Shown here piece by piece: positions 34,916 to 59,262 of a DNA stretch of 64,000 bases. The stretch lies in assembly GCA_964580865.1 (NCBI GenBank), contig CAZONM010000001.1, positions 2,825-66,824 on the forward strand, given 5' to 3'. The stretch comes from an uncultured Myxococcales bacterium. GTDB lineage: Bacteria; Myxococcota; UBA727; VGSZ01. Under the pieces are notes generated by a model. That model made no database searches. It saw nothing but the letters and a program-made list of their open reading frames with translations, and was not told the DNA's origin. Made by a program: the position numbers and the translations under genes. Within the stretch, counting starts at the first letter, position 1; every line of letters starts with the position of its first letter.

Positions 34916-35255
34916 GTAGGCCTCCCTACGACACGCACCCACATCTTCGAGGTCCACCCCGATGCGTCGACTCTTCCGTCGAACAAGACCGGCTGCGCAA
35001 TCACACCAGCCTCCCAAGGAAATCCAACAACATGGCGCCGGGTCCCCGCCCGGAGCGCTTGGAAGAATGCCTGACAAATGGGACTTTCACCAGTCGATTC
35101 CCCATCGGGAGTGATCCGTACCTCTTCGAGACAGGTCGCCGGCCTCGGGGCCCACCCGACCAGGCCGAAAGGGTCGAAAAACTGGACACCCGAGCCCGTG
35201 CCCGATACCAACGGCGTCACCGGTGTGGGGCCCGTTACCGCCCCCGCACGGCTTG

Positions 35256-40488: not shown

Positions 40489-41603
40489 GCAGCACGACGA
40501 CGCTCGAGTTCATCGATCTCAGGTCGCAGTACGCCGCTCTGCGCGACACCATCAACGCGCGCATCCAGCGCGTGCTCGATCACGGGCAGTTCATCCTCGG
40601 CCCCGAGGTCAAGGAGCTCGAGGAGAAGCTGGCGGCGCTGACCGGCGCGCGTCATTGCGTCACCGTGGCGAGCGGCACCGAGGCGATCCTCATCTCGCTG
40701 ATGGCGCTGGGGCTCAAGCCCGGTGACGAGGTCATCACCACGCCCTTCACGTTCGCCGCCACGGCCGAGATGATCGTGTTGCTCGGTGGTCGCCCGGTGT
40801 TCGTCGACGTCGAGGACGACACCTGCAACCTCGACGCCCGGCAGGTGGAAACCGCCGTCACCTCGCGCACGCGCGCCATCATGCCGGTGTCGCTGTATGG
40901 GCAGTGCGCCGACATGGCGGAGCTGAACGCCATCGCGGCGCGACACGGCCTGCCGGTCATCGAGGACGCGGCCCAGAGCTTCGGCGCCACGTATCGAGGC
41001 ACGAAGAGCTGCAACCTCTCCACGCTCGGTTGCACCAGCTTCTTTCCGTCGAAGCCGCTGGGCTGCTACGGCGACGGCGGCGCCGTGTTCACGAGTGACG
41101 ACGCGTTGGCGCAGGCCGTACGAGAGCTGCGCGTGCACGGACAGAGCCAGAGGTACACCCACACGCGCGTGGGCGTGGGTGGTCGCATGGACACGCTGCA
41201 GTGCGCGGTGGTGCTCGGCAAGCTCGAGCGGTTCTCCTGGGAGCTCGAGCGGCGGCGCGCCCTCGGCGACCGCTATCGCGCTCGGCTCCGCGAGCTCGGC
41301 GTGGCGGCCACGCCGATTGCGGTGCGCGCCGACCGTGACTGCGTGTGGGCGCAGATGACGGTGCTCGTCGACGAGCGCGATCGCGTGCAGGGGCGGCTCA
41401 AGGAGCTCGGCGTGCCCACGGCCGTCCACTACCCCAAGGTGCTCCATCACCAGCCCGCCTACGCCGGCCTGGCGCCGCCCACCGCATGTCCGAACGCCGC
41501 GCACGCCGCGTCCCGCGTGATGAGCCTGCCCATGAGCGCCGATCTGACCGATGCGCAGCTCGAGCGTGTGGTGACGTCGCTGGCGCAGGCGACGCAGCGC
41601 TGA
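40485..41603 (+). CDS. DegT/DnrJ/EryC1/StrS-family PLP aminotransferase, WbpE-like
   Basis: Start overlaps the wbpD-like stop (ATGA); motifs [40 protein letters not shown]. Confidence 0.8.
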
Positions 41604-41649
41604 CTCACGAGGCTTCCGAGGAACCGTTGGCACGACACACCGCGCGCTG

Positions 41650-43300: not shown

Positions 43301-43401
43301 CGCTTCGCGAAGGCGCCTCCACTGGACATCGACGCCGTCGATGATATCGACGAACCCGGCTGCTGGGATGGCCAGCGATGCCTGGCTGGAGGTCGCCTCC
43401 C

Positions 43402-44571
43402 ATGATCAAGCGTGATGTTGTCCGACAGTACAACCTTCCCCTCGAGGTCAAGTACTGCAAGAAGTGCACGGTAAGCAACCAGAGACCACGCATCACCTTC
43501 GACGGCGACGGCGTCTGCTCAGCATGTCGGTTCGCGGACTTCAAGCGTCAACAAATCGATTGGGCCGAACGCGAACGTGAGCTGGTCGACCTCTGCAACC
43601 GGCATCGGCGCGGCAACGGAGACTATGACGTTATCGTTCCCTGCAGCGGTGGCAAGGATGGTGGGTTTGTCGCTCACCAACTCAAGCATAAATACAACAT
43701 GAATCCGCTGACCGTGACATGGGCCCCACTCCGAGCAACGGAGATTGGACGACAGAACCTCGACGCGTTCATTGCCAGCGGGTTTGACAATGTCTTGGGA
43801 ACGCCGAATGGCCGTCTCACGCGCAAGCTGACGAGGCTCTCGACGCAATACCTAGGTGATCCCTTCCAGCCGTTCATCTATGGCCAAACCAATTTTCCGC
43901 TCCATATGGCCGTGAAGCACCACGTGCCACTCATCATGTACGGCGAGAACGGTGAGGTCGAGTACGGCGGCGATATGAAGAATGCCTTTCGGCCAACCCG
44001 TGACATCCAAGACCACGATAGGCACTATTTCTCGGGCATGCCGCCAGAATTTTGGATTGAGCACGGCATTGGCACCGGAGACCTGAAGCCGTTCATGGCG
44101 CCGCCATACGAAGAGATTGCGGCGAACAAAACAGAGATCCACTTCCTGGGCTATTACAAGTTTTGGGATCCTCAGGAAAACTTCTATTACTGTCGCGAGC
44201 ACACTGGCTTTACCCCGAACCCAGAGCGCTCCGAGGGCACCTATTCCAAGTACGCAAGCCTCGATGATCGCGTTGATGGCTTCCATTACTTCTTGGGCTA
44301 CATCAAGTTCGGGATCGGTCGCACAACCTCCGACGCCGCGCATGAGATTCGCGACGGAAAGATCGACCGCGAAGAAGGTATTGCGTTGGTCAAACGGTAC
44401 GACGGTGAATTTCCGCAAAAGTACTATCCCGAGTTCCTTGAATACATCGGCCTTTCCGACGATGAGTTTCAGGAGGTCGTTGACAGTTGGCGCTCGGACC
44501 ACCTTTGGCATCGTACAGCAACTGGTTGGGAGCTGCGGCATGCGGTCTGGCACGAGGCGCACCGCCAGTGA
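43402..44571 (+). CDS. N-acetyl sugar amidotransferase (WbpG/WbuX/PseA family, PP-loop ATP pyrophosphatase)
   Basis: ORF 43378..44571, start at Met9; N-terminal CxxC...C zinc ribbon (CKKCTVSNQRP...CSAC); PP-loop SGGKDG; lower GC than the flanks. Confidence 0.8.
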   Translation: MIKRDVVRQYNLPLEVKYCKKCTVSNQRPRITFDGDGVCSACRFADFKRQQIDWAERERELVDLCNRHRRGNGDYDVIVPCSGGKDGGFVAHQLKHKYNMNPLTVTWAPLRATEIGRQNLDAFIASGFDNVLGTPNGRLTRKLTRLSTQYLGDPFQPFIYGQTNFPLHMAVKHHVPLIMYGENGEVEYGGDMKNAFRPTRDIQDHDRHYFSGMPPEFWIEHGIGTGDLKPFMAPPYEEIAANKTEIHFLGYYKFWDPQENFYYCREHTGFTPNPERSEGTYSKYASLDDRVDGFHYFLGYIKFGIGRTTSDAAHEIRDGKIDREEGIALVKRYDGEFPQKYYPEFLEYIGLSDDEFQEVVDSWRSDHLWHRTATGWELRHAVWHEAHRQ

Positions 44572-44585
44572 GCGGAGTGCCACTC

Positions 44586-45389
44586 ATGACGTCACGGCAC
44601 GCCCAGATGCTGCATCACGGCGGAGCAGGATCCCATCGGGTCCGCCTAATCCCGCGCCTCGATATCAAGGGACCCAACCTCATCAAGGGCGTCCAGCTCG
44701 AGGGGCTGCGTGTGATAGGGAGCCCGCAGCTGTATGCATCGAGGTACTACGAGGCGGGTGCGGATGAACTCCTCTATGTCGACGTTGTCGCGAGCCTCTA
44801 CGGTCGCAATAGCCTCCACGAGATCATTCGCCGTGCGGCCGAAGATGTCTTTGTGCCGCTGACCGTGGTCGGCGGACTACGAAGCGTCGATGACGTTCGT
44901 GATGCGCTGCGCGCCGGCGCCGACAAGGTTGGCATCAATACCGCTGCCGTGAAGCGGCCCCTGCTCATCGCTGAGGTCGCGAGGGCCTTCGGTTCGCAGT
45001 GCATGGTTCTTTCGATTGAAGCCAAGCGCATCGGACCCGGTCAATGGGAGGCCTATACCGACAACGGTCGTGAGCGAAGCGGCCTGGATGTCGTGGCATG
45101 GGCCCGTCGTGGCGTTGAGCTTGGAGCGGGCGAGATCGTATTGACGTCTGTTGACCGAGAAGGTGGTCGCCAGGGCTACGAGTTGGAGTTGATCTCGGCC
45201 GTTGCTTCTGCGGTAGATGTTCCAGTGATCGCAAGCGGTGGGATGGGCAAACCGATGGACCTCGTTGACGCAGTGGCGGCGGGAGCGAGTGCTGTAGCAA
45301 TGGCCGATATCCTCCATTACGAACGCGCCACACTCTCTCAACTCCGTGAGGCGGCGCGTGGGGCTGGGATTGAAGTAAGGCATCCATGA
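44586..45389 (+). CDS. imidazole-glycerol-phosphate-synthase cyclase-subunit homologue (HisF-like; WbuZ/HisF2) partnered with the sugar amidotransferase
   Basis: ORF 44487..45389, start at Met34; (beta/alpha)8 HisF motifs RLIPRLDIKG, VPLTVVGGLRSVDD, VIASGGMGK. Confidence 0.8.
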   Translation: MTSRHAQMLHHGGAGSHRVRLIPRLDIKGPNLIKGVQLEGLRVIGSPQLYASRYYEAGADELLYVDVVASLYGRNSLHEIIRRAAEDVFVPLTVVGGLRSVDDVRDALRAGADKVGINTAAVKRPLLIAEVARAFGSQCMVLSIEAKRIGPGQWEAYTDNGRERSGLDVVAWARRGVELGAGEIVLTSVDREGGRQGYELELISAVASAVDVPVIASGGMGKPMDLVDAVAAGASAVAMADILHYERATLSQLREAARGAGIEVRHP

Positions 45390-46018
45390 AGGCCGTCACG
45401 GTTGTCGACCATGGCAGTGGCAATCTGCTCAGCGTCGCGCGTTCGCTAGAGCGAGTCGGCGCCACGGTGACGTTCTGTTCTGATACGGCCAGTCTTCTTC
45501 GCGCGGAGCGCCTAGTCCTTCCTGGGGTCGGCGCGTTTGCGACAGGAATGCAGGGGCTATCCTCCAGAGGGCTCGTCGACGCTCTACGGTCGTATTCGGA
45601 AACCGGGCGGCCGATCCTAGGCATTTGCCTCGGCATGCAGTTGCTCGCTGATGTGAGCGAGGAGTTTGGCGCACACGAGGGGCTACGGCTTATTCACGGG
45701 CGTGTTCAAATGATCCCGCGGCGAGACGTGGACGGTAATGCATTGCGGGTTCCGTTTGTCAACTGGGCGGAGCTGCAGCCGTCCCAATCATGGGAGTCAT
45801 CGATTCTCGCCGATGTCCCAACTGGAAAGGCGTTCTATTTTGTGCACTCGTACCACCTCGTAGTCGACAATCCCGCACACGAATTGGCCCACTACGTCTA
45901 CGGTGGGCGGAAGATCGCAGCCGTTGTCCAGGCTGGCGCCGTTACCGGCTGCCAGTTTCATCCGGAGAAGAGCGGGCCGGCCGGGCACGCGCTTCTCGCG
46001 CGCTTTCTCGCCGGTTGA
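45386..46018 (+). CDS. class-I glutamine amidotransferase, HisH-like (WbuY/HisH2)
   Basis: 210 aa; catalytic GICLGMQLL Cys and the HPEKS C-terminal motif; ATGA overlap with the preceding gene. Confidence 0.8.
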   Translation: MKAVTVVDHGSGNLLSVARSLERVGATVTFCSDTASLLRAERLVLPGVGAFATGMQGLSSRGLVDALRSYSETGRPILGICLGMQLLADVSEEFGAHEGLRLIHGRVQMIPRRDVDGNALRVPFVNWAELQPSQSWESSILADVPTGKAFYFVHSYHLVVDNPAHELAHYVYGGRKIAAVVQAGAVTGCQFHPEKSGPAGHALLARFLAG

Positions 46019-46033
46019 CGAGGACGATCCTCC

Positions 46034-47509
46034 TTGGCGCGCCTGGGCAGCATCGACGACCTCCTATCGATCGAGGACGATCCGGCGATCCTCGGTTTCC
46101 GTTGCCCGGCTACGGGACTACTCCTTTGGCCACTCGTTCGGGTTGCGTTCCTGCGAGAAATCCTCGGTGAGGTGTTCTACGGCGGCGCGACGGCCCCAGC
46201 GCTTTCGGGATATTCCTTACGCGCGGTCCAGTCCTTGGCGAAGGCAGCTTGGCACGATTTTCGGCATTCGCCGAATGGTGCCGACGTTGTAGTCATGGCC
46301 TCCGGTGCGGGCCGGGTGATGCGGAGCGGCCAGTCGTACAATCGCCTTGCCGATCCATTCGTCGACGTCTTGCCAAAGGGCACGATCCTTATCGAGGATC
46401 TCTTTGGCTGGCAGTGGCCAGTGCTACGCCCAGGGTCAAGAGTGCTATTCCACACGCCGTTTCAGGTCGCCGCGAGCGTCGCCGGGCGGTGTTTGGTTCG
46501 TAGCCGTCACCGGTCGCTCGCCGATCAACTGATCGCATTCGTCGTCGATCGGGCGGGTAAGTCGCTCGGCTGGGCACCTCGTCCGATTCGACAGGCCAGC
46601 GTTGCCAGGATGCTTGCTCACAAGATGGCGGCGCTGCCGGTTCTTCAGCATGGGTACCGACAATTGTTCGAGAGGGTCCGTCCACGGCTTCTCTTGAAGG
46701 AAGAGGCCTGCTATGGCCCGTCGGCAATGCTGATTTCGGTTGCTCGCGAGTTTGGCATAATAACGGCTGAATACCAACACGGCGTTGTAGCGCCTGGTCA
46801 CGATGCGTACAATTTCGCCCCGACGCTTTGCGCATCACCCGCCTGGAGGGCAATCCTGCCAGATTGGTTCCTCAGCTACGGGCAATGGTGGGACGACCAA
46901 ATTAACGCACCGATCAAGCGGCGTGTGATTGGCAATCCGTATCGCAGTCTGTTACTAGAGGGATCCGGAACGGGGTCAATGACGTCTCGCCAGCATCGTG
47001 AGGTATTGGTACTCGGTGACGGCATTGAGACCAACGCCTATGTTGGCCTTGCTCGCGCGCTTGCGCAGGCGCTACCAACATGGCACGTCGTATTTCGGCC
47101 CCATCCACTCGAGCGGCAGCTCGTGTCGGACCGGCACCCGAATGGCATTCCTGTCGACGACGGTCGATTTTTGGAGGTCGATTTGCAGGGGGATCTCTAT
47201 CGTTCCTTCAAGCGGTCGACGGTCGTCATTAGCGAGATGTCAACGGGCCTGTTCGAAGCTATGGGATTGGTACAGGTACCGCTGCTTTGGGACACACCGA
47301 AGTCGCGGTTCACCTTGCCAACTCACAGCTTTGCCTCGTTTCGTACGGTCGATGAGTGCGCGGAGATTCTACGGAACCATGTCGGCGATGATGCTTGCCG
47401 GGACGACGCCGGCGCCATCTGGGCACCGGATTGGCAGTCAAGGTACCGCGCATTTCTCAACGACGTTCTTCAAGGCAATAATGCTCCTCTGGTCGAGAAT
47501 GTTGTGTAG
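46034..47509 (+). CDS. hypothetical protein of the island (491 aa) with a C-terminal GT-B/Rossmann-like domain (putative glycosyl- or glycerophospho-transferase-like)
   Basis: No named family recognised; C-terminal segment VLVLGDGIETNAYVGLARALAQALPTWHVVFRPHPLE...STVVISEMSTGLFEAMGLVQVPLL; paralogous to the C-terminal half of 49835..50737. Confidence 0.55.
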   Translation: MARLGSIDDLLSIEDDPAILGFRCPATGLLLWPLVRVAFLREILGEVFYGGATAPALSGYSLRAVQSLAKAAWHDFRHSPNGADVVVMASGAGRVMRSGQSYNRLADPFVDVLPKGTILIEDLFGWQWPVLRPGSRVLFHTPFQVAASVAGRCLVRSRHRSLADQLIAFVVDRAGKSLGWAPRPIRQASVARMLAHKMAALPVLQHGYRQLFERVRPRLLLKEEACYGPSAMLISVAREFGIITAEYQHGVVAPGHDAYNFAPTLCASPAWRAILPDWFLSYGQWWDDQINAPIKRRVIGNPYRSLLLEGSGTGSMTSRQHREVLVLGDGIETNAYVGLARALAQALPTWHVVFRPHPLERQLVSDRHPNGIPVDDGRFLEVDLQGDLYRSFKRSTVVISEMSTGLFEAMGLVQVPLLWDTPKSRFTLPTHSFASFRTVDECAEILRNHVGDDACRDDAGAIWAPDWQSRYRAFLNDVLQGNNAPLVENVV

Positions 47510-48241
47510 CGGGGCGCTGATGTCTGGTGGCCGATCTTTTTCGCGCGCCCGGTGTGGCCGGCGTCCAAGGGTGCTGGTGGTTCTGAGCGAGCGAATGAGG
47601 TGGCTGCGCACGAAACGGCTGGGCATGAAATGTAGTCGCTCCCGCCGTAGGCGCTGCGCTATCGCCATGCCGAAGTCGCGGCCTGGTGAAACAGGGACGA
47701 AGAGGACGGATGCAAGGGCTACATCTCTCATTCAAGACGACTCGTTCCACACGAAGTCGACGCGTCGTGGGAACGGTATTTCGGACCGATCGTTGAGCCA
47801 GCAGATACAGCAAGCTCACGCCGGCGTCGCCACGCGGCGGATCGTGCCCGGAAAGCGGATCGCTTGCATCGGCCCGTTGTGTCGTCGTGCTGGAGGTTTC
47901 CTGGCCAACGCACTTGCCACGACATCGCCGTCGCTCTGTTGGTTTGACAGTGGGCCGGTAGGGCCTTGCGCGTTATCTGCAAGGGCGAACGGTTGCGTTG
48001 CTGCTTCGCCACCCTCGGTCTTTGCCAGGGTCCCGGCGTCGCGTCGTGGGTTCATGGAGCGAAGCACGGAGCTCGGGTGGCCTTTGATCTCACTGCAACT
48101 TGCGGCGTCCGGCTCACTCAATGCACCTGCTCGCCGCTATTGCAGGTACCAACTCTCCAGCGTTGCGCGCCACGGTCCGCATCGGGACGATATCTGGGTG
48201 GTTCTGTCCGCTTTGCCGGCGATGTCCGCCGCCTGGCGGTC

Positions 48242-49534
48242 ATGATGCTGAAAAGTGGGTTCATATACCTGGCAGCGAATGTCGCCTCGTCGGCTGTACC
48301 GTTCTTCTTGCTGCCCGTCCTGACGAGAGCGTTGGCGCCTGAGGCCTTTGGAGCGATCGTCGGGTTTTCTTTGGTGGCGACCATTGTGGCACCAATCGCT
48401 GGACTAAATGCTCATGGCGCGGTTGGCGTCGCATGGTTCAACCGTGACCGGGAGCATCTCCCCAGTTATGTCGGCGCAGCTGTCCTTGTTGCTTTCACAA
48501 GCACAGCGGTATGGGCGACTATCGCCGCGTTCGTCGTTTCGCAGACACCGATCGTGGACGCCGTGCCTGCCGAATGGGCGGCCGCAGCCGTTGTCATGGC
48601 TGGCGCCCAGGTCGTTCTCCAGATGCGGTTGGTGCTTTGGCAAAGCCAGAAGCGGCCGATGCCGGTCGCGACCATGCAATTCGCAGGTAGCATCGTACAT
48701 ATTGGGCTCGCGCTCGTGGCAGTGCTTGTTCTTGGACTCGAAGCACCGGGCCGAAACGGCGCGGCGGTTGTTGCAGCGGTCTTGTTTGCCGTTCTTGGAG
48801 TAGCTGCGCTGGCATGGGACGGCAATCTGACGTTGCGGGTTCGGCGCGACGACATTTTCGGGGTGGTGCGGTTCGGTGGCTTGCTCGTACCGCACGCGTT
48901 GGGCGGGGCCCTGACAGTCACCGTTGATCGAGTGGTCGTGGCAGCATGCTTGGGGCCTGATGCACTTGGAACCTACGGGGCCGCCGCCCAACTAGGCGCT
49001 GTCGTCGCCATCGCTGCAGATGCTTTCGGCAAGGCGTACAGTCCATGGCTGTTTGAGCGACTCGCGGCTGACGACGAGTCGGAGCGGCTCGTTGCTGTCG
49101 GCGCCATGTATGCTCTTGCCCCCCTTGCCATACCCGCCGGCGGCGTTGCCGCTGTTGCTCTGACAGCTCTCAGTAGCGTCGCTCTGGGCCCTGAATATGG
49201 CGCAGCCGCTGAACTCTTGCCATGGTTCATCGTTGGAGGGGTCGCGACGATCATCTACTTGTTGGTATCGCCGTTGTTTTTCTTTCACGACCGAACCGCT
49301 CGCCTGAGCTCCACAACGCTACCCTGCGCCGCCGTAGGGGCGCTCTGTACCTTCGCGCTAGCAAGAATCGACGGCGCTCGCGGCGCGGCCGCGGGCTTCG
49401 CGTTGACGCAGACGCTCCTGACGACGGGCGTGTGGGTCGTTGCTTTCCACACGTTCGACCTGCCATGGAGAAAACCATATCTTGCATTGCGGACTTGCTG
49501 GCGCCTTCTTCGGAATGTTGACGCCAAACCCTGA
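48242..49534 (+). CDS. wzx: Wzx-type polysaccharide flippase (MOP/PST family)
   Basis: ORF 47966..49534, first ATG at 48242 (MMLKSGFIYLAANVASSAVPFFLLPVLTRAL, the typical PST N-terminus); ~12 TM helices. Confidence 0.7.
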   Translation: MMLKSGFIYLAANVASSAVPFFLLPVLTRALAPEAFGAIVGFSLVATIVAPIAGLNAHGAVGVAWFNRDREHLPSYVGAAVLVAFTSTAVWATIAAFVVSQTPIVDAVPAEWAAAAVVMAGAQVVLQMRLVLWQSQKRPMPVATMQFAGSIVHIGLALVAVLVLGLEAPGRNGAAVVAAVLFAVLGVAALAWDGNLTLRVRRDDIFGVVRFGGLLVPHALGGALTVTVDRVVVAACLGPDALGTYGAAAQLGAVVAIAADAFGKAYSPWLFERLAADDESERLVAVGAMYALAPLAIPAGGVAAVALTALSSVALGPEYGAAAELLPWFIVGGVATIIYLLVSPLFFFHDRTARLSSTTLPCAAVGALCTFALARIDGARGAAAGFALTQTLLTTGVWVVAFHTFDLPWRKPYLALRTCWRLLRNVDAKP

Positions 49535-49834
49535 CTCGGCCGGCCATGGTGCATGCGATCTCGATCCTGGCGCAACGCTGAGCTCGTTTCCACAGGCCCT
49601 CGCGCACGGTGGCAGGTTCCGCGCTCGCCGTCCGGACGCTGTTGGGCGGCTGGATGCCTCAGCCGAGCGGTGCAGCATCAACAACGTCGGTCACGCCGCC
49701 CATCAGGATGTCGGTGGTCGCCGGAGAATCGGCGATACTCACGGGATGACGGCGCGCATTCGCCAGCTCGAGAGCATTGGCTACCTTTCGCGGGACGTTG
49801 GCGCGCGAATGCGCCAAGCGGGAGCGAGCGCTTC

Positions 49835-50737
49835 ATGAGCGAGCGGCGCGCCTCTGAACTGATGGCCAAGCGCGAGCGCGTCGACGCGCGCTCCTCCGTG
49901 CCTAGGAGGCACGCACGTGACGAGGCGGTGTGGCCGATGGTCCTGCACTCGTTCGTCGACGCACCTCGTCTCGCCTTCCCGGGCGCGCCGCCGAGCCGGG
50001 CGGTGCGCGCATGGGCCGTCGCGCGGCGACGGCAGCAGGGAGCCTCCGGACGCCCAAAGCGGTGCGCGCGCGCCGCCCGTATCGGTGCGCCCAGTAGGCT
50101 GCCTCGTTCCGAAGATGTGTCGTTCGCGCGCGTGGGGGCTCGTGCCATCGTCGGCGGCAACCCGTGGCTGTCCTTGTGGTCGTCCGCCGGCGCCGACGCC
50201 GACGTCGAGGACGCGCGCGCCGCAGCCGCCGCGCTGCGCCGCCGCGCCGGCGCGTGCCCCGTGGTGCTGGTGACGCTGCAGCCGGGGATCACCGATGGCG
50301 CCGAGCTCGCGCTGGTGCAGCGGGTGGCACGCGCCACACAGGGCCGGCTCTGGTTCTGGATCCGCTTGCATCCCGCCATGCTCGAGCGCCTCGACGAGGT
50401 GCGCCGGGCCTTCGCCACCCTCGAGCACTGCACCGTCGACGAACCCACCGAGCTGCCGCTGCCCGCGCTGCTCGGTGCCTGCGACGCGCACCTGACCCAC
50501 AGCTCTTCGACGGTCATCGAGGCGGCGCAGTTCGGCGTGCGCTCCGTCGTCACCTCCGTCTACGGCGCCGAGCTCTACCAGCGCCACATCGACGACGAGC
50601 GGCTGACGCTCGCGAGCGGGGGCGCTGACGTCGTCGCCGCGGCGGTGCTGCAGGCGACCAAGCGTGGTCGTGCGGGCACGTCGCACACGGGCAGCATCGA
50701 CGTGGCGCTGGCGCAGGTGCTCGGGGAGGCGCGGTGA
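49835..50737 (+). CDS. hypothetical protein, truncated paralogue of the 46034..47509 protein's C-terminal GT-B-like domain; start uncertain
   Basis: CPVVLVTLQPGITDGAELALVQRVARATQGRLWFWIRLHPAMLE...SSTVIEAAQFGVRSVV aligns to the island protein's VLVLGDGIETNAYVGLARALAQALPTWHVVFRPHPLE...STVVISEMSTGLFEAMGLVQVPLL; the first ~100 codons are Arg-rich and may be non-coding. Confidence 0.35.
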   Translation: MSERRASELMAKRERVDARSSVPRRHARDEAVWPMVLHSFVDAPRLAFPGAPPSRAVRAWAVARRRQQGASGRPKRCARAARIGAPSRLPRSEDVSFARVGARAIVGGNPWLSLWSSAGADADVEDARAAAAALRRRAGACPVVLVTLQPGITDGAELALVQRVARATQGRLWFWIRLHPAMLERLDEVRRAFATLEHCTVDEPTELPLPALLGACDAHLTHSSSTVIEAAQFGVRSVVTSVYGAELYQRHIDDERLTLASGGADVVAAAVLQATKRGRAGTSHTGSIDVALAQVLGEAR

Positions 50738-51891
50738 CGGCCACCATCGTCACCTCGCCCGCCCCGCGCACGGAGCGCCGCACGCTGCGCTTGGGCGTCG
50801 CGTTGGTGCTGCTGTGCGCCATCGCGGTGGGCGGCGCGGTGTTTCTTGCCACCATCGGTATCGACGCGCTCGAGGGCAAGAACGAATTCCAGTTCTTCGC
50901 GGACTCCGGCACCTATCACGCGGTGGCGCGCGGCGACGTCGTCGGCATCGAGGAGCTCAACGAGCTCATCGGCATCGTCGGCAACTTCCTCGGGCCGCTG
51001 ATGATCGTGAAGCTCGCGGGTGGCAACTACTACGCGATCTTGGTCATCAACTGCGTGCTGTTCTTCTGGTCCTTGGTCCTCATCACGCGCGCCCTGAGGA
51101 TCGACGCCCCGCGGCTCATGCTCTTCCTCTTTCTCAACCCGATGACGGTCTCGAGCCTCCTGTCGGTCAACAAGGAGATCCTCTCGATCGTGTTCGTCGC
51201 ACTCCTGGTGAGCGCCCTGGCGCGTCGATCGCTCGTAGCGTTGGCGCTGGCTGCGGCGCTCTCGGTGCTCGTGCGTTGGCAGCTCACCCTCTTCATCGTC
51301 GGTCTCCTGGCGACGATCTCACCGCTCAACCCGCTGCGCGCGCGCCGCGGCTGGACCATCATCGCGATACTGGTGACGTTGTCGGCGCTCTATGCCGCGA
51401 CCCTCGACGTGATCGAGCCGGTGCGCATGACCTTCGAGTCATCGGCGGAGGAGTACGAAGGGTCTGGGTTCTACGCGGCGCTGGTGGGATATCAAGATCG
51501 TGGCCTGTACTGGCTGATCTTCCCGGCCAAGGCGGCGAGCTTGTTGTTCGCGCTCGGGTTGCGCATCGATCGCCTGGTGGCGCCCGACAACATCTACAAT
51601 GACGTTTGGCAGCTGTTGCACTCCACCACCATGCTGGTGACCTTCGTCCTGGTCTGGCGTCGTCGGCGCCTCACCCTGGCAAACGATCTCGTCTTCGTGT
51701 CGGCCGTGTACATCGCGCTCTTCACGCTCTCGCCCATCTACACGCCGCGCTACTTCTACGCGGCGTTCGTGCTGTGGGCCATCGCGCTCGCCGCCGACAG
51801 TGACCGCCCGCCGCTGTTCGCGCCGCGCGCGTCACGGGCGGCCACGCGAGTGTCGGTATCGACGACGCCAGAGGCCCCGGCGCATGCGTGA
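50734..51891 (+). CDS. polytopic membrane protein, candidate O-antigen/EPS polymerase (Wzy-like)
   Basis: 385 aa; 10-11 predicted TM helices, no named family recognised; sits with Wzx/Wzz/OPX genes; GTGA overlap with the preceding ORF. Confidence 0.45.
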   Translation: MTATIVTSPAPRTERRTLRLGVALVLLCAIAVGGAVFLATIGIDALEGKNEFQFFADSGTYHAVARGDVVGIEELNELIGIVGNFLGPLMIVKLAGGNYYAILVINCVLFFWSLVLITRALRIDAPRLMLFLFLNPMTVSSLLSVNKEILSIVFVALLVSALARRSLVALALAAALSVLVRWQLTLFIVGLLATISPLNPLRARRGWTIIAILVTLSALYAATLDVIEPVRMTFESSAEEYEGSGFYAALVGYQDRGLYWLIFPAKAASLLFALGLRIDRLVAPDNIYNDVWQLLHSTTMLVTFVLVWRRRRLTLANDLVFVSAVYIALFTLSPIYTPRYFYAAFVLWAIALAADSDRPPLFAPRASRAATRVSVSTTPEAPAHA

Positions 51892-53524
51892 CCGCGTCGC
51901 CGTCCTCGCGCTGGTGGCGCTCGGCGCGGCGGCCGCGCCCGTGCGCGCGGCGTCGCTGGTGTTCCCCGACGACCCCGCCCTCGCCGTGGGGCGCGCGACG
52001 CTGTTGCTGGCGCAAGATGCGCGCGGCCTCGGCATGTACCCGCTCTCCGATCGCGAGCTGCGCGCGCGCGGCGTGCTCACCGCGCCGCCCGACCCCACGG
52101 GCGCACGGCTGCACCTCGTGTGGCGCCCGCAAGCGAGCGCCTGGCGCGGCCTGTCGCCGGCGCTACGCGAGGGGACGCTGTGGTACGACGCTATCGCGCC
52201 CTTGGCCGAGCTGGGCGCCAACGTGAGCGACGGCGAATGGCTCGGCGCGCACCTGCGCCTCGACCTCAGCTCGGTCCGCCGCGACTTCACGGGCGATGGG
52301 CTGGCCGCACCGTGGACGCTCGACAGCTACGCGAACCTCGACTTCCCGCGCGAGTCGTGGGCGGTGGTCGCCACCGAGCACCTGCTGGTGGCGGCCGGCC
52401 GCTTCCGCAGCGGCATCGGGCACGGCGTGTTCGGCAATCCGTTCTTGAACGGGCGGGCACCCTGGTACGACCAGGTGCAGGCCGAGTGGCACGACGACCA
52501 CTTCCGCGCGCGGTGGCTGCTTGGCACCTCGTCGTCGTTCTTGACCGCCGCCGAGGCCGCGGTGCAGGGCTACGGCACCGCCGCACCGCCGCGCGGTGGC
52601 TTCGACCCCGTCAACAACTATGACAGCGCGCGCTTCGACGCGCCGGCCAAGTCCTTCATGTACCGCTGGTACGAGTGGGCGCCCTGGCCGTGGCTGGTGC
52701 TGGGGGCTGGGGAGATGGGCGTGGTGGGCGGCAAGCAGCCCGACCTCTCGCAGCTGTTGCCGATGGTGGTGTGGCACAACGCCTACGCGCCCGGCAGCAC
52801 CAACGTCATGCTCGGGGTGAGCGCGGCCGTGGCGCCGCTGCCCGGCCTGCTCCTCTTCGGTGAGCTCGTGGCCGACGACGTCGCGACCAGGAACGAGGCG
52901 GATGGGCAGAAGCCCACCTCCTTGGGCTGGCAGCTCGGCGGCCGGTGGGTGGCGTCGGTGCACGCAGACGTGCTCGCCGAGGTCGCCGTCGAGTACACCC
53001 ACGTCGATCGCTGGACCTATCAGCGCTGGCAGCCGTACCTCGTCATGCAGCAGCGACAGATCGTGCCGTGCGGCTGCAACTTCGTCGACGTGCCGCTCGG
53101 CTACCCGTGGGGCGGCGACCTCGACGCCGCGGGCGCGCGCCTACGCGCGTTCGCCCCCGACGGGCTCGAGCTGTCACTGGGGATCGAGGGGATGTGGCGG
53201 GGGGCCATGCGGCTTGGCGCCATCACCGGATCCCCGCTGCTCGACGACCAGGGGGCGCCGGTGCTCGACCGATTCGGCGAACCGGTGCGCGCGCCGCTGT
53301 ACTACGACCTCGACGCGTGGGCGGGTCCGGGCGCGCTCGACGAGTACACGCAGCGGCCGCGCGAAGCTCGGGTCACCATCTCGCTGGGGGCGGACATTCC
53401 GATAGCGCCGCACGTGAGCGCGAACGCCATGGTGCTCTGGAGCGCGCTCGACAACGTCGAGAACGCCGCGGGCGTGCGCGCGCAGCGCTGGCTGCTGCAC
53501 GGCGGCATGCGCGTCGCGCTGTAG
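51884..53524 (+). CDS. secreted/outer-membrane protein (hypothetical, 546 aa), translationally coupled to the Wzy-like gene
   Basis: ORF 51800..53524, ATG at 51884 overlaps the upstream stop; signal peptide MRDRVAVLALVALGAAAAPVRAAS; Trp/Tyr/Gly-rich beta-rich protein. Confidence 0.55.
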   Translation: MRDRVAVLALVALGAAAAPVRAASLVFPDDPALAVGRATLLLAQDARGLGMYPLSDRELRARGVLTAPPDPTGARLHLVWRPQASAWRGLSPALREGTLWYDAIAPLAELGANVSDGEWLGAHLRLDLSSVRRDFTGDGLAAPWTLDSYANLDFPRESWAVVATEHLLVAAGRFRSGIGHGVFGNPFLNGRAPWYDQVQAEWHDDHFRARWLLGTSSSFLTAAEAAVQGYGTAAPPRGGFDPVNNYDSARFDAPAKSFMYRWYEWAPWPWLVLGAGEMGVVGGKQPDLSQLLPMVVWHNAYAPGSTNVMLGVSAAVAPLPGLLLFGELVADDVATRNEADGQKPTSLGWQLGGRWVASVHADVLAEVAVEYTHVDRWTYQRWQPYLVMQQRQIVPCGCNFVDVPLGYPWGGDLDAAGARLRAFAPDGLELSLGIEGMWRGAMRLGAITGSPLLDDQGAPVLDRFGEPVRAPLYYDLDAWAGPGALDEYTQRPREARVTISLGADIPIAPHVSANAMVLWSALDNVENAAGVRAQRWLLHGGMRVAL

Positions 53525-53539
53525 CGTGGCGGTCGCCGC

Positions 53540-54640
53540 TCACGCGGCGCGTCGGCCACCCCGGAGCCGTCGGTAAGCGCCGGCCGCGAAGTTCCACAGC
53601 CAGCGCTCGCTCGGGTACGCGTCATGCGCCTTCCCCGGACGCGCGAGGTAGGCGTCGAGCTCGCCGCGCGTCCAGCCCATCTTGTTGAGGAAGTACTGGA
53701 TATCCGCCTCGAGCGCGTCGGCGTCGGGGTACGGGCTCTGCTGCAGGAGGCGCAGCGCCTCGTCGCGGGTCATCTGCCCCGCCACCACCAACGTCGACAA
53801 GTGGAGGCGCCGCTTGTCGATGCCGAACTTCTTCGGCAGCAGGTAGCCCTGATAGAAGCGCGTGAACACCGACTCGTAGTGCTTGTAGGGGTAGGGCTTG
53901 TAGCTCATCTCGGCCACCAGCACCTCGAGCGCGCGCGCCTTCTGGTAGTCGAAGAAGTCGAGGAAGCTCTCCCACCGAATGCCGCGGACGTGCTCGCACG
54001 TGATGTAGTCGACGACGCCGATGAGCGGGAACGTCTGCAGCGGACGCCCGTTGCCGAACGTCCGCCACAGCGCGCGGATGTTGGTGGCGTCGAACTTGAA
54101 CCAGTTCCACCCCTTCGGCATCGCCATGCCCTCGGTGGCCGTGTTGGTGCCGCCGAGGATGTGCTTGATGCCCCACTGCTTCGCCTGTCGGTAGTTCACC
54201 GCCAGCATCGCGTTGTCGTACAGGAGCTCGACGTCGATGACGTCGGCGCGGAAGAACGCGTTCATCAGCTCGCGGTATTCGTCCCAGTTGATGACGTGCG
54301 TGTAGTAGTCGACGCCGAGGCGATCGACCAAGTTCTCGATGTTGTTCTGCGCGAGCTCGGTGTTCCAGCCGTTGTCCATGTGCACGGCGAGCGGGCGCAG
54401 GCCGTGCTGCTTGGCCAGGTACAGCACCCAGGAGCTGTCGACACCGCCCGACAGGCCCACCACGCAGTCGTACGCGCGGCCCCGGCCATCGGCCTTCACG
54501 CGCTCGAGGTACGCGTCGCGGCGGCGCGCGCGCTGAGCCTCGTCCATGAAGAGCACGTGGCGCTTGCTCGCCAGGAAGTCACGGCAGTAGTTGCACACCC
54601 CGAGAGCATCGAAACTGATGTCGCGCGCGCTGGTGTCCAT
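53540..54640 (-). CDS. second N-acetyl sugar amidotransferase (WbpG/WbuX/PseA family paralogue) in high-GC DNA
   Basis: ORF 53540..55060, the likely start is Met141 (54640: MDTSARDISFDALGVCNYCRDF...); PP-loop VVGLSGGVDSS; the upstream 140 codons are Arg/Pro-rich and not conserved. Confidence 0.75.
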   Translation of the reverse strand: MDTSARDISFDALGVCNYCRDFLASKRHVLFMDEAQRARRRDAYLERVKADGRGRAYDCVVGLSGGVDSSWVLYLAKQHGLRPLAVHMDNGWNTELAQNNIENLVDRLGVDYYTHVINWDEYRELMNAFFRADVIDVELLYDNAMLAVNYRQAKQWGIKHILGGTNTATEGMAMPKGWNWFKFDATNIRALWRTFGNGRPLQTFPLIGVVDYITCEHVRGIRWESFLDFFDYQKARALEVLVAEMSYKPYPYKHYESVFTRFYQGYLLPKKFGIDKRRLHLSTLVVAGQMTRDEALRLLQQSPYPDADALEADIQYFLNKMGWTRGELDAYLARPGKAHDAYPSERWLWNFAAGAYRRLRGGRRAA

Positions 54641-55028
54641 CACGCAGCGCGCGCAGGTCGTGGGGTTCGAGCTTGACGATGCCACTGGTTCACCCGCCGG
54701 CCGCACCGTGGGCGGCACCCTCGTGTCGTGTTCGCCATGTCCGCGCGCGACGCCGCTCGACGGTCTCGGCGACGGCGTCGTCGCGGCGCTCGACGCATGG
54801 GCGCGCCATGCTCGGTCGCCACGCGGCGCCCTCGCCGGCACCACCGGCACGCGCTCATCGGCGGACGTGTCGCGCGCCAGCCTACTGCCCCACGCTCGAG
54901 GTTCGTAGCGGGAAGTGTGCGGCGACCCTCCGTTCCGCTCGCCGCCGGTCCGCCGGCAACCGACGTGGCCGCGAGCAGCGGGGTCGAGCGCCTTGACAGC
55001 AGGCGCGGGGTCCGCGACACCGAATGCG

Positions 55029-56114
55029 ATGTCGCGCACCGCGCTGATCACGGGCGTCACGGGCCAGGACGGCGCGTACCTCGCGGAGCTCTTGCTCGAT
55101 AAGGGCTACCAGGTCCACGGCATCAAGCGGCGCAGCTCGCTGTTCAACACCGACCGCATCGATCACCTCTACCACGACCCCCACGTGGCCGGGCGACGCT
55201 TCACGCTGCACCACGGTGACCTCACCGACTCGTCGAGCCTGATCCGTATCATCCAGCAGACCCAGCCCGACGAGATCTACAACCTCGCGGCACAGAGCCA
55301 CGTCGCGGTGAGCTTCGAGGAGCCTGAGTACACGGCGAACTCGGACGCGCTCGGCCCGCTGCGCGTGCTCGAAGCGATCCGCATCCTGGGCCTCGAGAAG
55401 AGGACGCGCTTCTACCAGGCGTCGTCCTCGGAGATGTATGGGCTCGTGCAGGCGGTGCCGCAGAACGAGCACACGCCCTTCTACCCGCGCAGCCCCTACG
55501 CCGTCGCCAAGCTGTACGCTTATTGGATCACGGTCAACTACCGCGAGGCCTACGGCATCTACGCCTGCAACGGCATCCTGTTCAACCACGAGTCGCCGCT
55601 GCGCGGCGAGACGTTCGTAACGCGCAAGATCACGCGCGCGCTGGCCCGCATCAAGCTGGGCATCCAAGACTGCCTGTGGCTCGGGAACCTGAACGCGCGC
55701 CGCGACTGGGGCCACGCGCGCGACTACGTCGTGATGCAGTGGCTCATGCTGCAACAAGACGCGCCCGACGACTACGTCGTCGCTACGGGTGTGCAGCGCT
55801 CGGTGCGCGAGTTCGTCGAGGCGGCGGCGCGCGAGTTGGATATCGAGCTTCGCTGGCAAGGCACGGGCGTCGACGAGAAGGGCTATGACCGCAGCGGCCG
55901 CTGCATCGTCGCGGTCGATCCACGCTACTTCCGCCCCACCGAGGTCGACACGCTGCTCGGCGACGCGTCCAAGGCGCGTGCCAAGCTCGGCTGGGCGCCC
56001 ACCGTCTCCTTCGAGCAGCTGGTCGCGGAGATGGCCAAGGAAGACCTCATCGCCGCGGAGCGCGATGAGCTGATCAAGCGCCACGGCTATCGCGCGCTGC
56101 TGCGGCATGAGTAG
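55029..56114 (+). CDS. gmd: GDP-mannose 4,6-dehydratase
   Basis: [37 protein letters not shown]...; SDR YxxxK ([10 protein letters not shown]); 361 aa. Confidence 0.93.
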
Positions 56115-56120
56115 CCGCCC

Positions 56121-57071
56121 ATGAGCGACCGCGTCCTCGGCCCCGACAGCAAGATCTACGTCGCCGGTCACCTCGGCATGGTGGGTTCCGCGCTGCTGCG
56201 CCGGCTGCGGGCCGGCGGGTATCGCAACCTTGTGGTCCGGTCGCGCGCCGAGCTCGACCTGTGCGACCAGGCCGCCACCCACCGCTTCCTCGCGGACCAG
56301 CGCCCCGACGTCGTCATCGTGGCGGCGGCGCGCGTCGGCGGTATCCACGCGAACGACACCCTCCGCGCGCAGTTCCTGTACGACAACCTAGCCATCGCCA
56401 CCAACGTCATCGACGGCGCCCACCGCGCTGGGGTCGACCGGCTCCTGTTCCTCGGCTCGAGCTGCATCTACCCGCGCGACTGCTCGCAGCCGATCCGCGA
56501 GGAGTATCTGCTCACGGGCCCGCTCGAGCACACCAACGAGCCCTACGCCATCGCCAAGATCGCCGGGCTCAAGCTGTGCGAGGCGTACGCCGCGCAATAC
56601 GGTCGCCGCTACATCTCGGTGATGCCGACGAACCTGTATGGCCCCAACGACAACTACGACCTGGCGTCGAGCCACGTGCTGCCGGCGCTCTTGCGCAAGG
56701 CCCACGAGGCGAAGGCCGCGGGTGCCCGTCAGCTCGCCGTCTGGGGCAGCGGGGCGCCGCGCCGCGAGTTCCTGTTCGTCGACGACCTCGCGGACGCCTG
56801 CGTGTTCTTGCTCGAGGCCGGCTACGGTGGGTCGTGGGTCAACGTCGGCACGGGCAGCGACGTGACCATCGCGGAGCTGGCGCAGCTCGTCATGCGCACC
56901 GTGGGGTTCGCCGGCGAGCTCGTGTTCGATCGCACCAAGCCCGACGGCACGCCGCGCAAGCTCCTCGACGTCTCGCGCCTGCAGGCGCTCGGGTGGCGCG
57001 CCCGCACGTCGCTCCACGACGGTCTGGCGCGCACCTACCAGGACTTTTTGAACGCGCCTCCCACGGGATGA
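56121..57071 (+). CDS. fcl: GDP-L-fucose synthase (GDP-4-keto-6-deoxy-D-mannose 3,5-epimerase/4-reductase)
   Basis: 316 aa; [15 protein letters not shown] and [15 protein letters not shown] motifs; directly downstream of gmd. Confidence 0.9.
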
Positions 57072-57862
57072 AGATCACCGTCGTCACCGTGGCCTTCAAC
57101 GCCGAGAAGACCATCGGCGACACCCTGCGCTCGGTGGCGGCGCAGCGGCACCCGGCGGTGGAGCACCTGGTCATCGACGGCGGCTCGCGCGACGCCACCA
57201 TGGAGGTGGTGCGGGCCCACGCGCACCGCGGGCTGTGCGCACAGAGCGAGCCCGACCGCGGCCTGTATGACGCGATGAACAAGGGCCTGGCCCAAGCGAC
57301 CGGCGACCTCGTCGGCTTCCTCAACGCCGACGACTTCTTCGCGCGCACCGACGCGCTCACGCTGATCGCGCGTGCCGCCGCGGAGCACCCGGCGGCCGAC
57401 GCGGTGTGCGGCGCGGTGGCCTTGGTGGAGCCAGAGCGCCCCGATCGTGTGCGGCGCCACTACCGCGCGCGCGGCTTTCGGCCATGGATGATGCGCTATG
57501 GCCACATGCCGCCGCACCCGGGCTTTTATGTGCGCCGCGCCGCCGCCGCCGCCGTGGGACCCTTCGACCTCGATCTGCGGGTGGGCGCCGACTTCGAGTG
57601 GATGCTGCGCTTCTTCCACGTCAAGGCGCTGCGCATGGAGCCTCTCGACGAGACCTTGGTGGGGCTGCGCCTGGGCGGCGTCTCCACGCGCGGCCTCGCC
57701 AGCATGCGCGTCATCAACGCGGAGGCGGTGCGCTCGTGCCGTCGCTGGGGTGTGCCCACGAGCCCCGCGCGCGTGTGGTCGAAGTACCTCGCCAAGGGCC
57801 TGCAGCTCGTGCGACGGCCGGTGGACTTCCCGCGCGGCGCGGACACTGCGTGGCTTCCCTGA
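57068..57862 (+). CDS. family-2 glycosyltransferase (GT-A)
   Basis: [16 protein letters not shown]...LVIDGGSRD...DAMNKG...FLNADDFF; ATGA overlap with the fcl stop. Confidence 0.8.
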
Positions 57863-58639
57863 TCAGCGCGCGCTCGCGCTCGCGCACAGCTCGTCGCGCT
57901 GCGCCTGGCTCGGGTAGTTGATGAGCACGGCGCGGAACGGCCCCTTGAACACGAACAGGCTGCCGGCCGCGGCCCCCACCACACCGCACGTGGTGACGAG
58001 CGCGCGCAGATCGGCGAGCGACCCGGCGCCGCCGAGCACCGTGAGCGGGATGCGCACGGCCTCCCGCACCGCGCGCGCCAGCGTCAGGTCGTAGCCCTTC
58101 ATCAGACCGTCGTTGTCGATGGAGTTCACCACCAGCTCGCCAGCGCCGAGCGCTGCCATCTCCGCGGCCACGTCGACGGGCGCGCGCTTGGTGTTGCGGG
58201 TGCCGTTGTGCGTCCACACCTCGGCACCGCCCAGCAAGCGCTTCTTGACGTCGAGCACCACCACCACGCTCTGGCTGCCGATCTCCTCGGCGATCTGACG
58301 CACCAGCGCGGGCCGCTCGATGGCCGCGGAGCTGAGCGCCACCTTCTCGACGCCGAGCCCCACGATCTGGCGGGCGTGCGCCGCGGTCTTGACGCCGCCG
58401 CCGTAGCACAGCGGCATGCGGCACTCCATCGCCAGCGAGGTGATGAGCTTGAGGTTCGGCTCGGCCGCGCGCACGCTCGCGTCGATGTCGAGCACGATCA
58501 GCTCGTCGGCCTCCTTCTCGTTGAAGATCTTCACCGCGTTGATGGGATCGCCGACGTACTTCGGCTCCTTGAAGCGCTGGGTCTTCACCAGACCGCCGTC
58601 GTGGACCAGCAAGCACGGGATGACGCGAGGACGGAGCAT
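57863..58639 (-). CDS. HisF-like cyclase subunit (HisF2/WbuZ), second copy
   Basis: MLRPRVIPCLLVHDGGLVKTQRF...; ORF 57863..59710 with start at Met358 (58639); the upstream part of that ORF is an alternative frame of the hisH-like gene. Confidence 0.8.
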   Translation of the reverse strand: MLRPRVIPCLLVHDGGLVKTQRFKEPKYVGDPINAVKIFNEKEADELIVLDIDASVRAAEPNLKLITSLAMECRMPLCYGGGVKTAAHARQIVGLGVEKVALSSAAIERPALVRQIAEEIGSQSVVVVLDVKKRLLGGAEVWTHNGTRNTKRAPVDVAAEMAALGAGELVVNSIDNDGLMKGYDLTLARAVREAVRIPLTVLGGAGSLADLRALVTTCGVVGAAAGSLFVFKGPFRAVLINYPSQAQRDELCASASAR

Positions 58640-58644
58640 GCGCC

Positions 58645-59262
58645 TCAAAGCTCCGCGAAATTCTTGAGGAGCGCCGCACCGTAGTGGTGGCTCTTCTCGG
58701 GGTGAAACTGCACGCCGTAGACGTTGTCGGCGTGGACGGCGCAGGTGAACTCCCCACCGTAGGTGGCTGTGGCCGCCGTGTCGTCGGCGCGTTCGGCTTC
58801 GAAGAAGAATGAGTGCAAAAAGTAGAAACGCGCGTCGCGCTCGAGCCCGGCGAACAACCGCTCGCCGGCGCGCGGCGTGACGTCGTTCCAGCCCATGTGG
58901 GGCATGGGCAGCCGCGCCGCCGGCGGCCAGTCGCGAAAGCCGCGTACCCGCCCGGGGATCAGCTCCAGCCCCGCGCGCGTCCCCTCGTCGCTCGAGCGCG
59001 CCAACAGCTGCATGCCCACGCACACGCCGAGCAGCGGCACCTTGCGTGTGTGCACCAGCTCCACCAGCGTCGGCTTCATGCCCGAGGCCTCGAGGCGCTC
59101 GACGGCGTGGTCGAAGGCGCCGACGCCCGGCAGGATGACCTTGGTGGCGCCCGCGAGCTCGTCGGCGCTCCTCGCCACGGTGCACGGGAGGTTGAGTCGC
59201 CGATAGACGTTGGCGAACGCCAAGACATTGCCGAGCCCGTAGTCGATGATCGCGACCGTCAT
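58645..59262 (-). CDS. HisH-like glutamine amidotransferase (HisH2/WbuY), second copy
   Basis: MTVAIIDYGLGNVLAF...GVCVGMQLL...FHPEKS; 205 aa. Confidence 0.85.
   Translation of the reverse strand: MTVAIIDYGLGNVLAFANVYRRLNLPCTVARSADELAGATKVILPGVGAFDHAVERLEASGMKPTLVELVHTRKVPLLGVCVGMQLLARSSDEGTRAGLELIPGRVRGFRDWPPAARLPMPHMGWNDVTPRAGERLFAGLERDARFYFLHSFFFEAERADDTAATATYGGEFTCAVHADNVYGVQFHPEKSHHYGAALLKNFAEL

Follow-up and report, generated by a model that had tools for sequence, protein, structure and literature searches.

Why should a single surface-polysaccharide locus encode two sets of the proteins WbpG, HisH and HisF? This question is raised by a stretch of 64,000 nucleotides from contig CAZONM010000001.1 of an uncultured Myxococcales bacterium (hereafter the window), in which a compact set 1 is followed by a second, divided set 2. 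Based on what is known of the family, the HisH glutaminase would produce ammonia, the HisF-like barrel would channel it, and the ATP-dependent PP-loop amidotransferase (N-acetyl sugar amidotransferase, NASAT) would use it to turn an N-acetyl group of a sugar into an acetamidino group. It is considered fairly probable that the two trios are non-orthologous and serve different sugars, in that the resident set 2 acts on a diacetamido-uronic acid, while set 1 is the stranded tail of a cassette for 5-acetamidino-legionaminic acid (Leg5Am7Ac).

All six genes were recognised by their profile scores. The amidotransferases A1 of set 1 (43402..44571, plus strand) and A2 of set 2 (53540..54685, minus strand) reach 344.2 and 263.2 bits with TIGR03573 (WbuX, N-acetyl sugar amidotransferase; cutoff 203.2 bits). 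Likewise, the glutaminase subunits HisH1 (45386..46018, plus strand) and HisH2 (58645..59262, minus strand) score 178 and 208 bits with TIGR01855 (cutoff 105.4 bits), and the GxCxGxQ and HPE motifs of the Cys/His/Glu triad are readable in both (GICLGMQ in HisH1, GVCVGMQ in HisH2). The HisF-like ammonia-channel subunits HisF1 (44586..45389, plus strand) and HisF2 (57863..58639, minus strand) match PF00977 with 207 and 201 bits. While HisF2 passes the AglZ/HisF2 equivalog model for acetamidino-modification proteins (NF038364, 382.2 bits, cutoff 310), HisF1 is not a member of this family (176.5 bits). Both miss the cutoff of the WbuZ model TIGR03572 (264.3 and 289.5 compared to 299.7 bits), and since HisF1 scores about equally with the model of the true hisF (260.5 bits, cutoff 294.6), it belongs to neither curated family. 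Set 1 has the order wbuX-hisF-hisH with the stop codon of hisF1 overlapping the start of hisH1, and its proteins of 389, 267 and 210 amino acids were called identically in independent gene predictions on public Logan contigs. Exact look-ups of A1, HisH1 and HisH2 led only to such assemblies, with 99.8-100% identity to the window. A preliminary description of this DNA had proposed two independent sets, the first being a compact wbpG-hisF-hisH unit at 43402..46018 on the plus strand within a low-GC island; coordinates and order proved exact, and the composition given below agrees with the island.

The two sets are not recent copies of each other. A1 and A2 share 31% identity in an alignment restricted to 112 residues at the N-terminus, the identity of HisF1 to HisF2 is 33% and that of HisH1 to HisH2 36%, and A1 and A2 fall into separate clades. 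Near-identical duplicates, which the preliminary description had named as an outcome that would speak against independence, were thus looked for and not found, and a recent duplication is excluded by these identities of 31-36%.

The same holds true for inactivating mutations. The features described for the family are a PP-loop of the form SGGxDS and a four-cysteine zinc motif, CxxC...[GN]xCxxC (PMC10607449). In A2 the PP-loop reads SGGVDS, while A1 shows SGGKDG; since this variant is common to 119 of its 120 closest orthologues, it is a trait of the subfamily and not a lesion. The cysteine site reads CKKC...GVCSAC in A1 and CARC...GVCNYC in A2. Among the columns with a conservation of 95% or more across the orthologues, A1 deviates in one of 210 and A2 in two of 124 positions, compared to a median of one for the other sequences. 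In alignments to the structures 4evz and 1gpw, HisF1 as well as HisF2 retains the residues of the ammonia gate, which are R5, E46, K99 and E167 in the numbering of Thermotoga maritima. As to the cyclase aspartates D11 and D130, HisF1 keeps D11 and has D130E, while HisF2 keeps D130 and has D11L, which is the consensus of its family. The replacement of one cyclase aspartate in each protein fits ammonia-channel partners rather than enzymes of the histidine pathway. With motifs and conserved columns retained, inactivation of either set is excluded, and as far as can be read from the sequences it is confirmed that the six genes are intact and form two complete, unrelated trios with their catalytic motifs kept.

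For A2, the zinc site is complete only with a start codon upstream of position 54640. The public gene call (P0121, 366 amino acids) starts at ATG 54640, which lies inside the motif CARCVMDTS and deletes the first CxxC of the site. Since the A2 homologues begin about 10 residues upstream of this ATG, the GTG at 54685 is most likely the true start. An exact look-up of the protein starting at 54685 gave no public match, the public call starting at 54640.

The origin of set 1 becomes apparent from its composition. In a host of about 72% GC, the part of the window at roughly 43.3-49.5 kb stands out as a compositional island. The five genes of this island, A1, HisF1, HisH1, an uncharacterised gene named U491 (46034..47509, plus strand) and, as the last one, a Wzx-type flippase (48242..49534, plus strand; PF01943, GC3 0.65), show a GC content at third codon positions (GC3) of 0.65-0.68, compared to 0.84-0.95 for all other genes of the locus. 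A1 aligns end to end with the amidotransferase structure 8WEX of Legionella pneumophila (E 5.7e-105, 355 bits), while A2 matches this structure only around the PP-loop (E 2e-7, 34 bits). The orthologues of A1 are 77-87% identical across Betaproteobacteria, Leptospira and Bdellovibrio, an unusual degree of conservation. To the Legionella gene of this type, ORF28, a homologue of ptmG/Cj1324, the conversion of CMP-Leg5Ac7Ac to CMP-Leg5Am7Ac has been attributed (PMC3766260).

A comparison with related loci and contigs (numbered L or P in the following) revealed the genes with which an A1-type trio normally occurs. In all ten readable relatives (L090 from Herbaspirillum seropedicae, L092, L093, L094 and the P0002 contig, and the more distant L040, L041, L043, L062 and L077), the trio lies within or adjoins LegB, LegC, LegH, LegI (NeuB), LegG, PtmE or LegF genes. 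The closest syntenic relative, L093, shows the order NeuB-PtmE-LegF-A1(86%)-HisF(83%)-HisH(72%)-U494(61%)-Wzx. Across the 64-kb window no NeuB, LegG, PtmE or LegF homologue was found, except for a legF tail of about 90 nucleotides directly in front of A1 (43312..43405, plus strand). This remnant of the CMP-legionaminic acid synthetase gene, recognised by nucleotide and peptide comparison with L093, comprises the last 30 or so of about 237 codons, and its peptide, PLDIDAVDDIDEP...GQRCLAGGRLP, ends at a stop codon like the LegF C-terminus, SLDIDTPDDIDEL...GQRRLAGGRVP. The similarity to L092 and L093 starts abruptly at about 43312. From alignment column 83 (43312-43401), the window and L093 share 73% of the nucleotides (64/88), compared to 38% upstream, while L092 and L093 are still 67% identical to each other upstream of this breakpoint.

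Upstream of the legF tail, about 1 kb without a clear coding-frame signal extends to 43311 and is preceded by a fragment of an IS66-family transposase gene (41673..42326, minus strand). No more than the beginning of the DDE domain is left in this fragment (PF03050, E 4.5e-6, profile positions 1-48 of 284), which sits between a WbpE-like gene and the legF remnant and was called alike in the public Logan contigs. A blastx comparison of 41550-43450 and 47450-48300 with all open reading frames (ORFs) of the related loci showed no pseudogene remnant beyond the legF tail. The separation of set 1 from the legionaminic-acid genes and the truncation of legF at about 43312 had no counterpart in the preliminary description.

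The right edge of the island is probably marked by the ORF 49835..50737 (plus strand). Only 50138-50617 of it matches other proteins, corresponding to about residues 213-389 of longer proteins (about 430 amino acids), which in L013, L072 and L089 adjoin NeuB-like and amidotransferase genes and are distantly related to U491 (E 0.002). Since the match is restricted to the C-terminal part and host-like GC3 is found only from about 50200 on, this ORF appears to be a resident gene truncated at its 5' end. Within the island, 732 bp without a convincing ORF (47510-48241) separate U491 from the flippase gene, while both genes abut in L093, and the identity between the flippases of the window and of L093 is as low as 38%. 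From these two observations, the island itself looks mosaic.

Since the trio keeps its leg genes in the relatives, while the window holds only a legF tail with an IS66 fragment beside it, set 1 can be explained as a horizontally acquired, truncated piece of a Leg5Am cassette; our moderate confidence in this origin applies to the whole explanation given at the outset. Set 1, U491 and Wzx would then represent the tail of the cassette, which would have been cut inside legF beside the IS66 remnant, so that the genes for sugar synthesis were lost from the locus. With the sugar genes missing here, set 1 would have a substrate only if legionaminic-acid genes are present elsewhere in the genome; otherwise it would be a recently stranded, still intact module.

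Set 2 differs from set 1 in composition and surroundings. Its genes show a GC3 of 0.91-0.95 (A2 0.94) and host-like codon usage, in accordance with the native, high-GC character proposed in the preliminary description; the division of the set described there was also observed, while its start of the wbpG-like gene at 54640 gives way to 54685. Among 5.8 billion proteins, the best homologue of A2 was only 71% identical, so close relatives are evidently absent from this large protein collection. A scan of genome contigs gave a best match of 64% identity, with matches scattered over many phyla.

The left part of the locus contains three genes on the plus strand that point to the substrate of set 2. 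A WlbA/WbpB-like UDP-GlcNAcA 3-dehydrogenase gene (38834..39892) matches the PDB entries 3q2i (E 1.8e-186) and 3q2k (E 2.1e-171), which we take to be WlbA of Chromobacterium violaceum and of Bordetella pertussis, respectively, and contains GFO/IDH/MocA domains. It is followed by a WlbB/WbpD-like 3-N-acetyltransferase gene with hexapeptide repeats (39895..40488; 3mqg/3mqh, E 3.3e-86, with the PDB title 'Lipopolysaccharides biosynthesis acetyltransferase') and by a WbpE/WlbC-like aminotransferase gene (40485..41603; 3nyu/3nu7, 'Aminotransferase WbpE', E 1.3e-126; PF01041, 406 bits), the ATG of which overlaps the stop codon of the gene upstream. None of the three proteins passes an NCBIfam model, and they were identified via these PDB sequence matches. 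WlbA/WbpB, WlbB/WbpD and WbpE are enzymes in the synthesis of UDP-2,3-diacetamido-2,3-dideoxy-glucuronic acid. In Pseudomonas aeruginosa O5, where this sugar is in its mannuronic form, WbpG is credited with the acetamidino group at C-3 (PMC10607449).

To place these genes in a wider context, 80 loci with an A2-type amidotransferase (54-64% identity) were surveyed within a neighbourhood of 10 kb. WbpB/D/E-like genes were present in 37 of them, NeuB-like genes in 12 and both in 4. A comparable cluster has been annotated in a polysaccharide locus of Sphingomonas (PMC11340318). Since HisF2 passes the AglZ/HisF2 equivalog and WlbA, WlbB and WbpE homologues are present in the locus, the substrate of set 2 is most likely a 2,3-diacetamido-2,3-dideoxy-hexuronic acid, which would be converted to its 3-acetamidino derivative. 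Set 2 would thus act on the sugar of the adjacent WlbA/WlbB/WbpE homologues, as in P. aeruginosa O5 and Methanococcus maripaludis.

Several findings weigh against the explanation of a resident set 2 for a uronic acid and a stranded set 1. The substrate of set 2 is read from the gene neighbourhood only, and trios of the A2 type were also encountered in operons for legionaminic acid that lack WbpB/D/E (L030, L041), as well as beside FnlA/B/C-like genes (L077). Since these contexts differ, the A2 clade is not bound to one particular sugar. No WbpA-like or WbpI-like gene was found within the window; the uronic-acid pathway is therefore incomplete here as well, which weakens the argument drawn from the missing legionaminic-acid genes. 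In addition, HisF2 and HisH2 deviate at 9 and 5 conserved columns, respectively, compared to a median of one, the changes being mostly conservative. Finally, the genes of set 1, U491 and Wzx are all intact, and a working module would fit this state equally well.

Among the deviations of the two proteins, non-conservative changes were noted in HisF2 (F74R, H235F) and in HisH2 (G100E).

The intact island genes and the lack of excess changes at the conserved columns of A1 would also be expected if both sets were active on two residues of one polymer, one carrying Leg5Am7Ac and the other an acetamidino-diacetamido-uronic acid, with the leg genes located elsewhere in the genome. This arrangement has parallels in L062, L040 and the P0002 contig, which carry both types of sets together with both sugar pathways, and the absence of the WbpA and WbpI functions from the window indicates that pathway genes are evidently dispersed. 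On the other hand, all ten relatives have legionaminic-acid genes adjoining the A1 trio, the truncation of legF at the edge of the island is plain to see, and the composition of the island is unameliorated, so that the intact reading frames may reflect nothing more than a recent arrival. Taken together, the activity of both sets on one polymer is possible, though we hold it to be rather doubtful.

The stranded set 1 beside a resident set 2 is retained as the preferred explanation. As to the gene order of set 2, HisH, HisF and the amidotransferase are contiguous on one strand in 65 of the 76 evaluable loci. On the minus strand of the window the canonical order is kept, starting with a gene of the glycosyltransferase family 4 (GT4) upstream of HisH2 (59259..60557, minus strand; PF00534, PF13692), followed by HisH2, HisF2 and, after an interruption, A2. 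Homologues of this GT4 (51-54% identical) adjoin amidotransferase sets in L040, L080 and L094. The interruption consists of three plus-strand genes, gmd (55029-56114; TIGR01472, 581 bits, above cutoff), fcl (56121-57071; NF047922 Fcl, 483 bits, just below the cutoff of 500) and a gene of the glycosyltransferase family 2 (GT2; 57068-57862; PF00535), so that the opposite-strand GDP-L-fucose insert in set 2 amounts to 3.2 kb. It is assumed that the operon was split when gmd-fcl-GT2 came between hisF2 and A2. As a consequence of the split, A2 must be transcribed from the divergent region of 343 bp at 54686-55028. The convergent genes GT2 (plus strand) and HisF2 (minus strand) end on the neighbouring bases 57862 and 57863, leaving no spacer and no room for a terminator.

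A split set might be a decaying one, and set 1 could then have been acquired as a functional replacement or backup for it. The disruption by gmd-fcl-GT2 and the deviations of HisF2 and HisH2 beyond the typical level would fit such a decay, while the genes of set 2 are of full length, keep their motifs and share the codon usage of the host, and the score of HisF2 lies above the equivalog cutoff. Moreover, the alignment of A1 with A2 does not extend beyond the N-terminal 112 residues, and the two proteins represent different subfamilies, each with its own genomic partners. Since these subfamilies are linked to different substrates, a replacement of the native set by the acquired one, which was among the three implications listed in the preliminary description, does not fit, and we consider it very improbable. 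The modification of two different residues, also listed there, fits the related loci, in which set-1-type trios are associated with Leg5Am7Ac and set-2-type trios with a 2,3-diacetamido-uronic acid or N-acetylfucosamine (FucNAc). As to the chemistry, the formation of acetamidino groups stated in the preliminary description stands, while the amidation of a carboxylate does not. The amidation of uronic-acid carboxylates is the task of enzymes of the AsnB type, such as WbpS, and not of the NASAT family. The latter acts on an N-acetyl (acetamido) group, which becomes an acetamidino group (PMC10607449).

Two sets per locus are not unusual in themselves. In 21 of the 80 surveyed loci the amidotransferase was accompanied by another one within 10 kb, in three of them also by a third, and A1-type and A2-type trios occur together in L040, L041, L043, L062, L077 and the P0002 contig. 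Three paralogues have been described in Vibrio vulnificus and two in Campylobacter, as well as additional HisF/HisH proteins in L. pneumophila serogroup 6 (PMC10607449, PMC3694923). The arrangement in the window is therefore of a known kind. In L093 (9815-12388), the gene after the second HisH-HisF pair does not encode an amidotransferase; its product is instead 62% identical to a membrane protein of the window (50734-51891). In the 15 kb that were examined of this 22.5-kb contig, no A2-type gene was seen.

The compact operons of L041 and L077 raise the further alternative that the two sets act sequentially on one sugar. In both, the order LegI-LegG-...-A1-HisF-HisH-(LegF)-U491-HisH-HisF-A2 places the two trios among legionaminic-acid genes, and the product could be a doubly amidated sugar, such as a nonulosonate with acetamidino groups at C-5 and C-7 or a uronic acid with acetamidino groups at C-2 and C-3. 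We know of no doubly acetamidino sugar of this kind. The FnlA/B/C-like genes of L077 would supply a second N-acetyl sugar, L062 keeps its trios apart, each beside its own pathway, and in the window a distance of 7.5 kb separates the two sets, which occupy different strands and are of different origin. Sequential action on one sugar is hence judged improbable for the window. There is likewise a small chance that the amidotransferases of L041 and L077 amidate both N-acetyl groups of one nonulosonic acid, in which case the island of the window would be half of such a pathway; a 5,7-di-acetamidino nonulosonic acid has, to our knowledge, not been described.

Within the preferred explanation, in which set 1 is the stranded tail of a Leg5Am7Ac cassette, the role of U491 deserves attention. 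The protein of 491 amino acids has no match in Pfam or NCBIfam, and its approximately 350 homologues are all named hypothetical. The AlphaFold2 model (mean predicted local distance difference test, pLDDT, 90.5) was assigned by Foldseek to the GT-B fold, with structural matches in the PDB to GT4 enzymes including BshA, to the bacterial polysialyltransferase 5wc6 and to UDP-GlcNAc 2-epimerases (E 1e-7 to 1e-5). Members of the family lie directly beside amidotransferase trios in 10 loci of the A2 contig scan and in L093 (for example L093 6463-7947, L030 7058-8440, L041 7129-8559 and L077 7172-8599), and the family is nearly always found beside amidotransferase/HisH/HisF trios and legionaminic-acid genes. 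Its invariant motifs EYQHG, LGDG and RPHPxE resemble the 'HP' motif of bacterial sialyltransferases, a resemblance which is to be taken as a lead and not as a test. Based on the model and the neighbourhood, U491 is probably the glycosyltransferase of the set 1 cassette and possibly a legionaminic-acid transferase. An undescribed family of GT-B nonulosonate transferases would be the more likely novelty compared to a di-acetamidino sugar.

Compared to known systems, set 1 most closely recalls the L. pneumophila amidotransferase LpNASAT/ORF28 (8WEX; homologue of Campylobacter PtmG, Cj1324), with which A1 shares the end-to-end alignment, the four-cysteine zinc site and the PP-loop region, and the trio of Legionella lies among legionaminic-acid genes like those of the A1 relatives. 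Differences are an insertion of about 15 residues in LpNASAT that is missing in A1, the last residue of the PP-loop (G in SGGKDG of A1, S in LpNASAT) and, in the window, the lack of legionaminic-acid synthesis genes with the truncated legF. Set 2 resembles WbpG/HisH2/HisF2 of P. aeruginosa O5 in the WbpB/WlbA, WbpD/WlbB and WbpE homologues of the locus and in the HisF2 equivalog, a likeness which is based on HisF2 and the neighbours. In contrast to the O5-type ManNAc3NAmA pathway, homologues of WbpA and WbpI are not contained in the window, and set 2 is interrupted by gmd-fcl-GT2. A likeness to AglX/AglY/AglZ of M. maripaludis (3-acetamidino-ManNAc3NAmA) is presumed from the name of model NF038364, which refers to the Methanococcus and Pseudomonas partners. 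WbuX/WbuY/WbuZ of Escherichia coli O145 (L-FucNAm) belong to the same three-protein family, and both A1 and A2 pass the WbuX model, while FnlA/B/C-type genes for UDP-L-FucNAc are missing in the window and HisF1 and HisF2 remain below the WbuZ cutoff. With V. vulnificus, Campylobacter and L. pneumophila serogroup 6 the window shares the presence of several sets, and it differs from them in having one set separated from its sugar pathway.

The remaining genes of the polysaccharide locus are as follows. Its left end is formed by a gene for an initiating sugar-phosphate transferase of the WecA/MraY family (33416..35077, minus strand; PF00953, 140 bits; TIGR02380 WecA, 142 bits, below cutoff). It is followed on the plus strand by genes for a Wza-like polysaccharide export protein (35223..37673; PF02563 Poly_export and SLBB domains) and a chain-length determinant of the Wzz/GNVR type (37670..38779; PF02706, PF13807), the ATG of which at 37670 overlaps the Wza stop codon. 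Between the island and A2, two further plus-strand genes without a match in Pfam or NCBIfam encode the above-mentioned membrane protein (50734..51891), a possible polymerase, and a secreted protein with a signal-peptide-like N-terminus (51884..53524), both without family assignment. Outside the locus, a second region of lower GC (18010-28341, GC 0.63-0.67) resembles, by ORF sizes and N-terminal sequences, a narGHJI respiratory nitrate reductase cluster with nitrate/nitrite transporters. A MoaA gene (30596-31615), checked by Pfam, follows this region.

Altogether, the number of WbpG/HisH/HisF sets in a locus does not predict the number of amidated residues; for such a prediction, the subfamily of the amidotransferase and its neighbours are needed. 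For annotation, the example of A2 shows that a public start codon can drop part of a zinc site. The U491 family, uncharacterised, with a GT-B fold and travelling with acetamidino modules, is a candidate for a legionaminic-acid transferase and may be of use to glycobiologists. Finally, the window represents a clear example of the cassette-wise assembly of surface-polysaccharide loci, in which a resident acetamidino system would have been split by a fucose cassette, while a second one would have arrived truncated next to the remnant of an insertion sequence.

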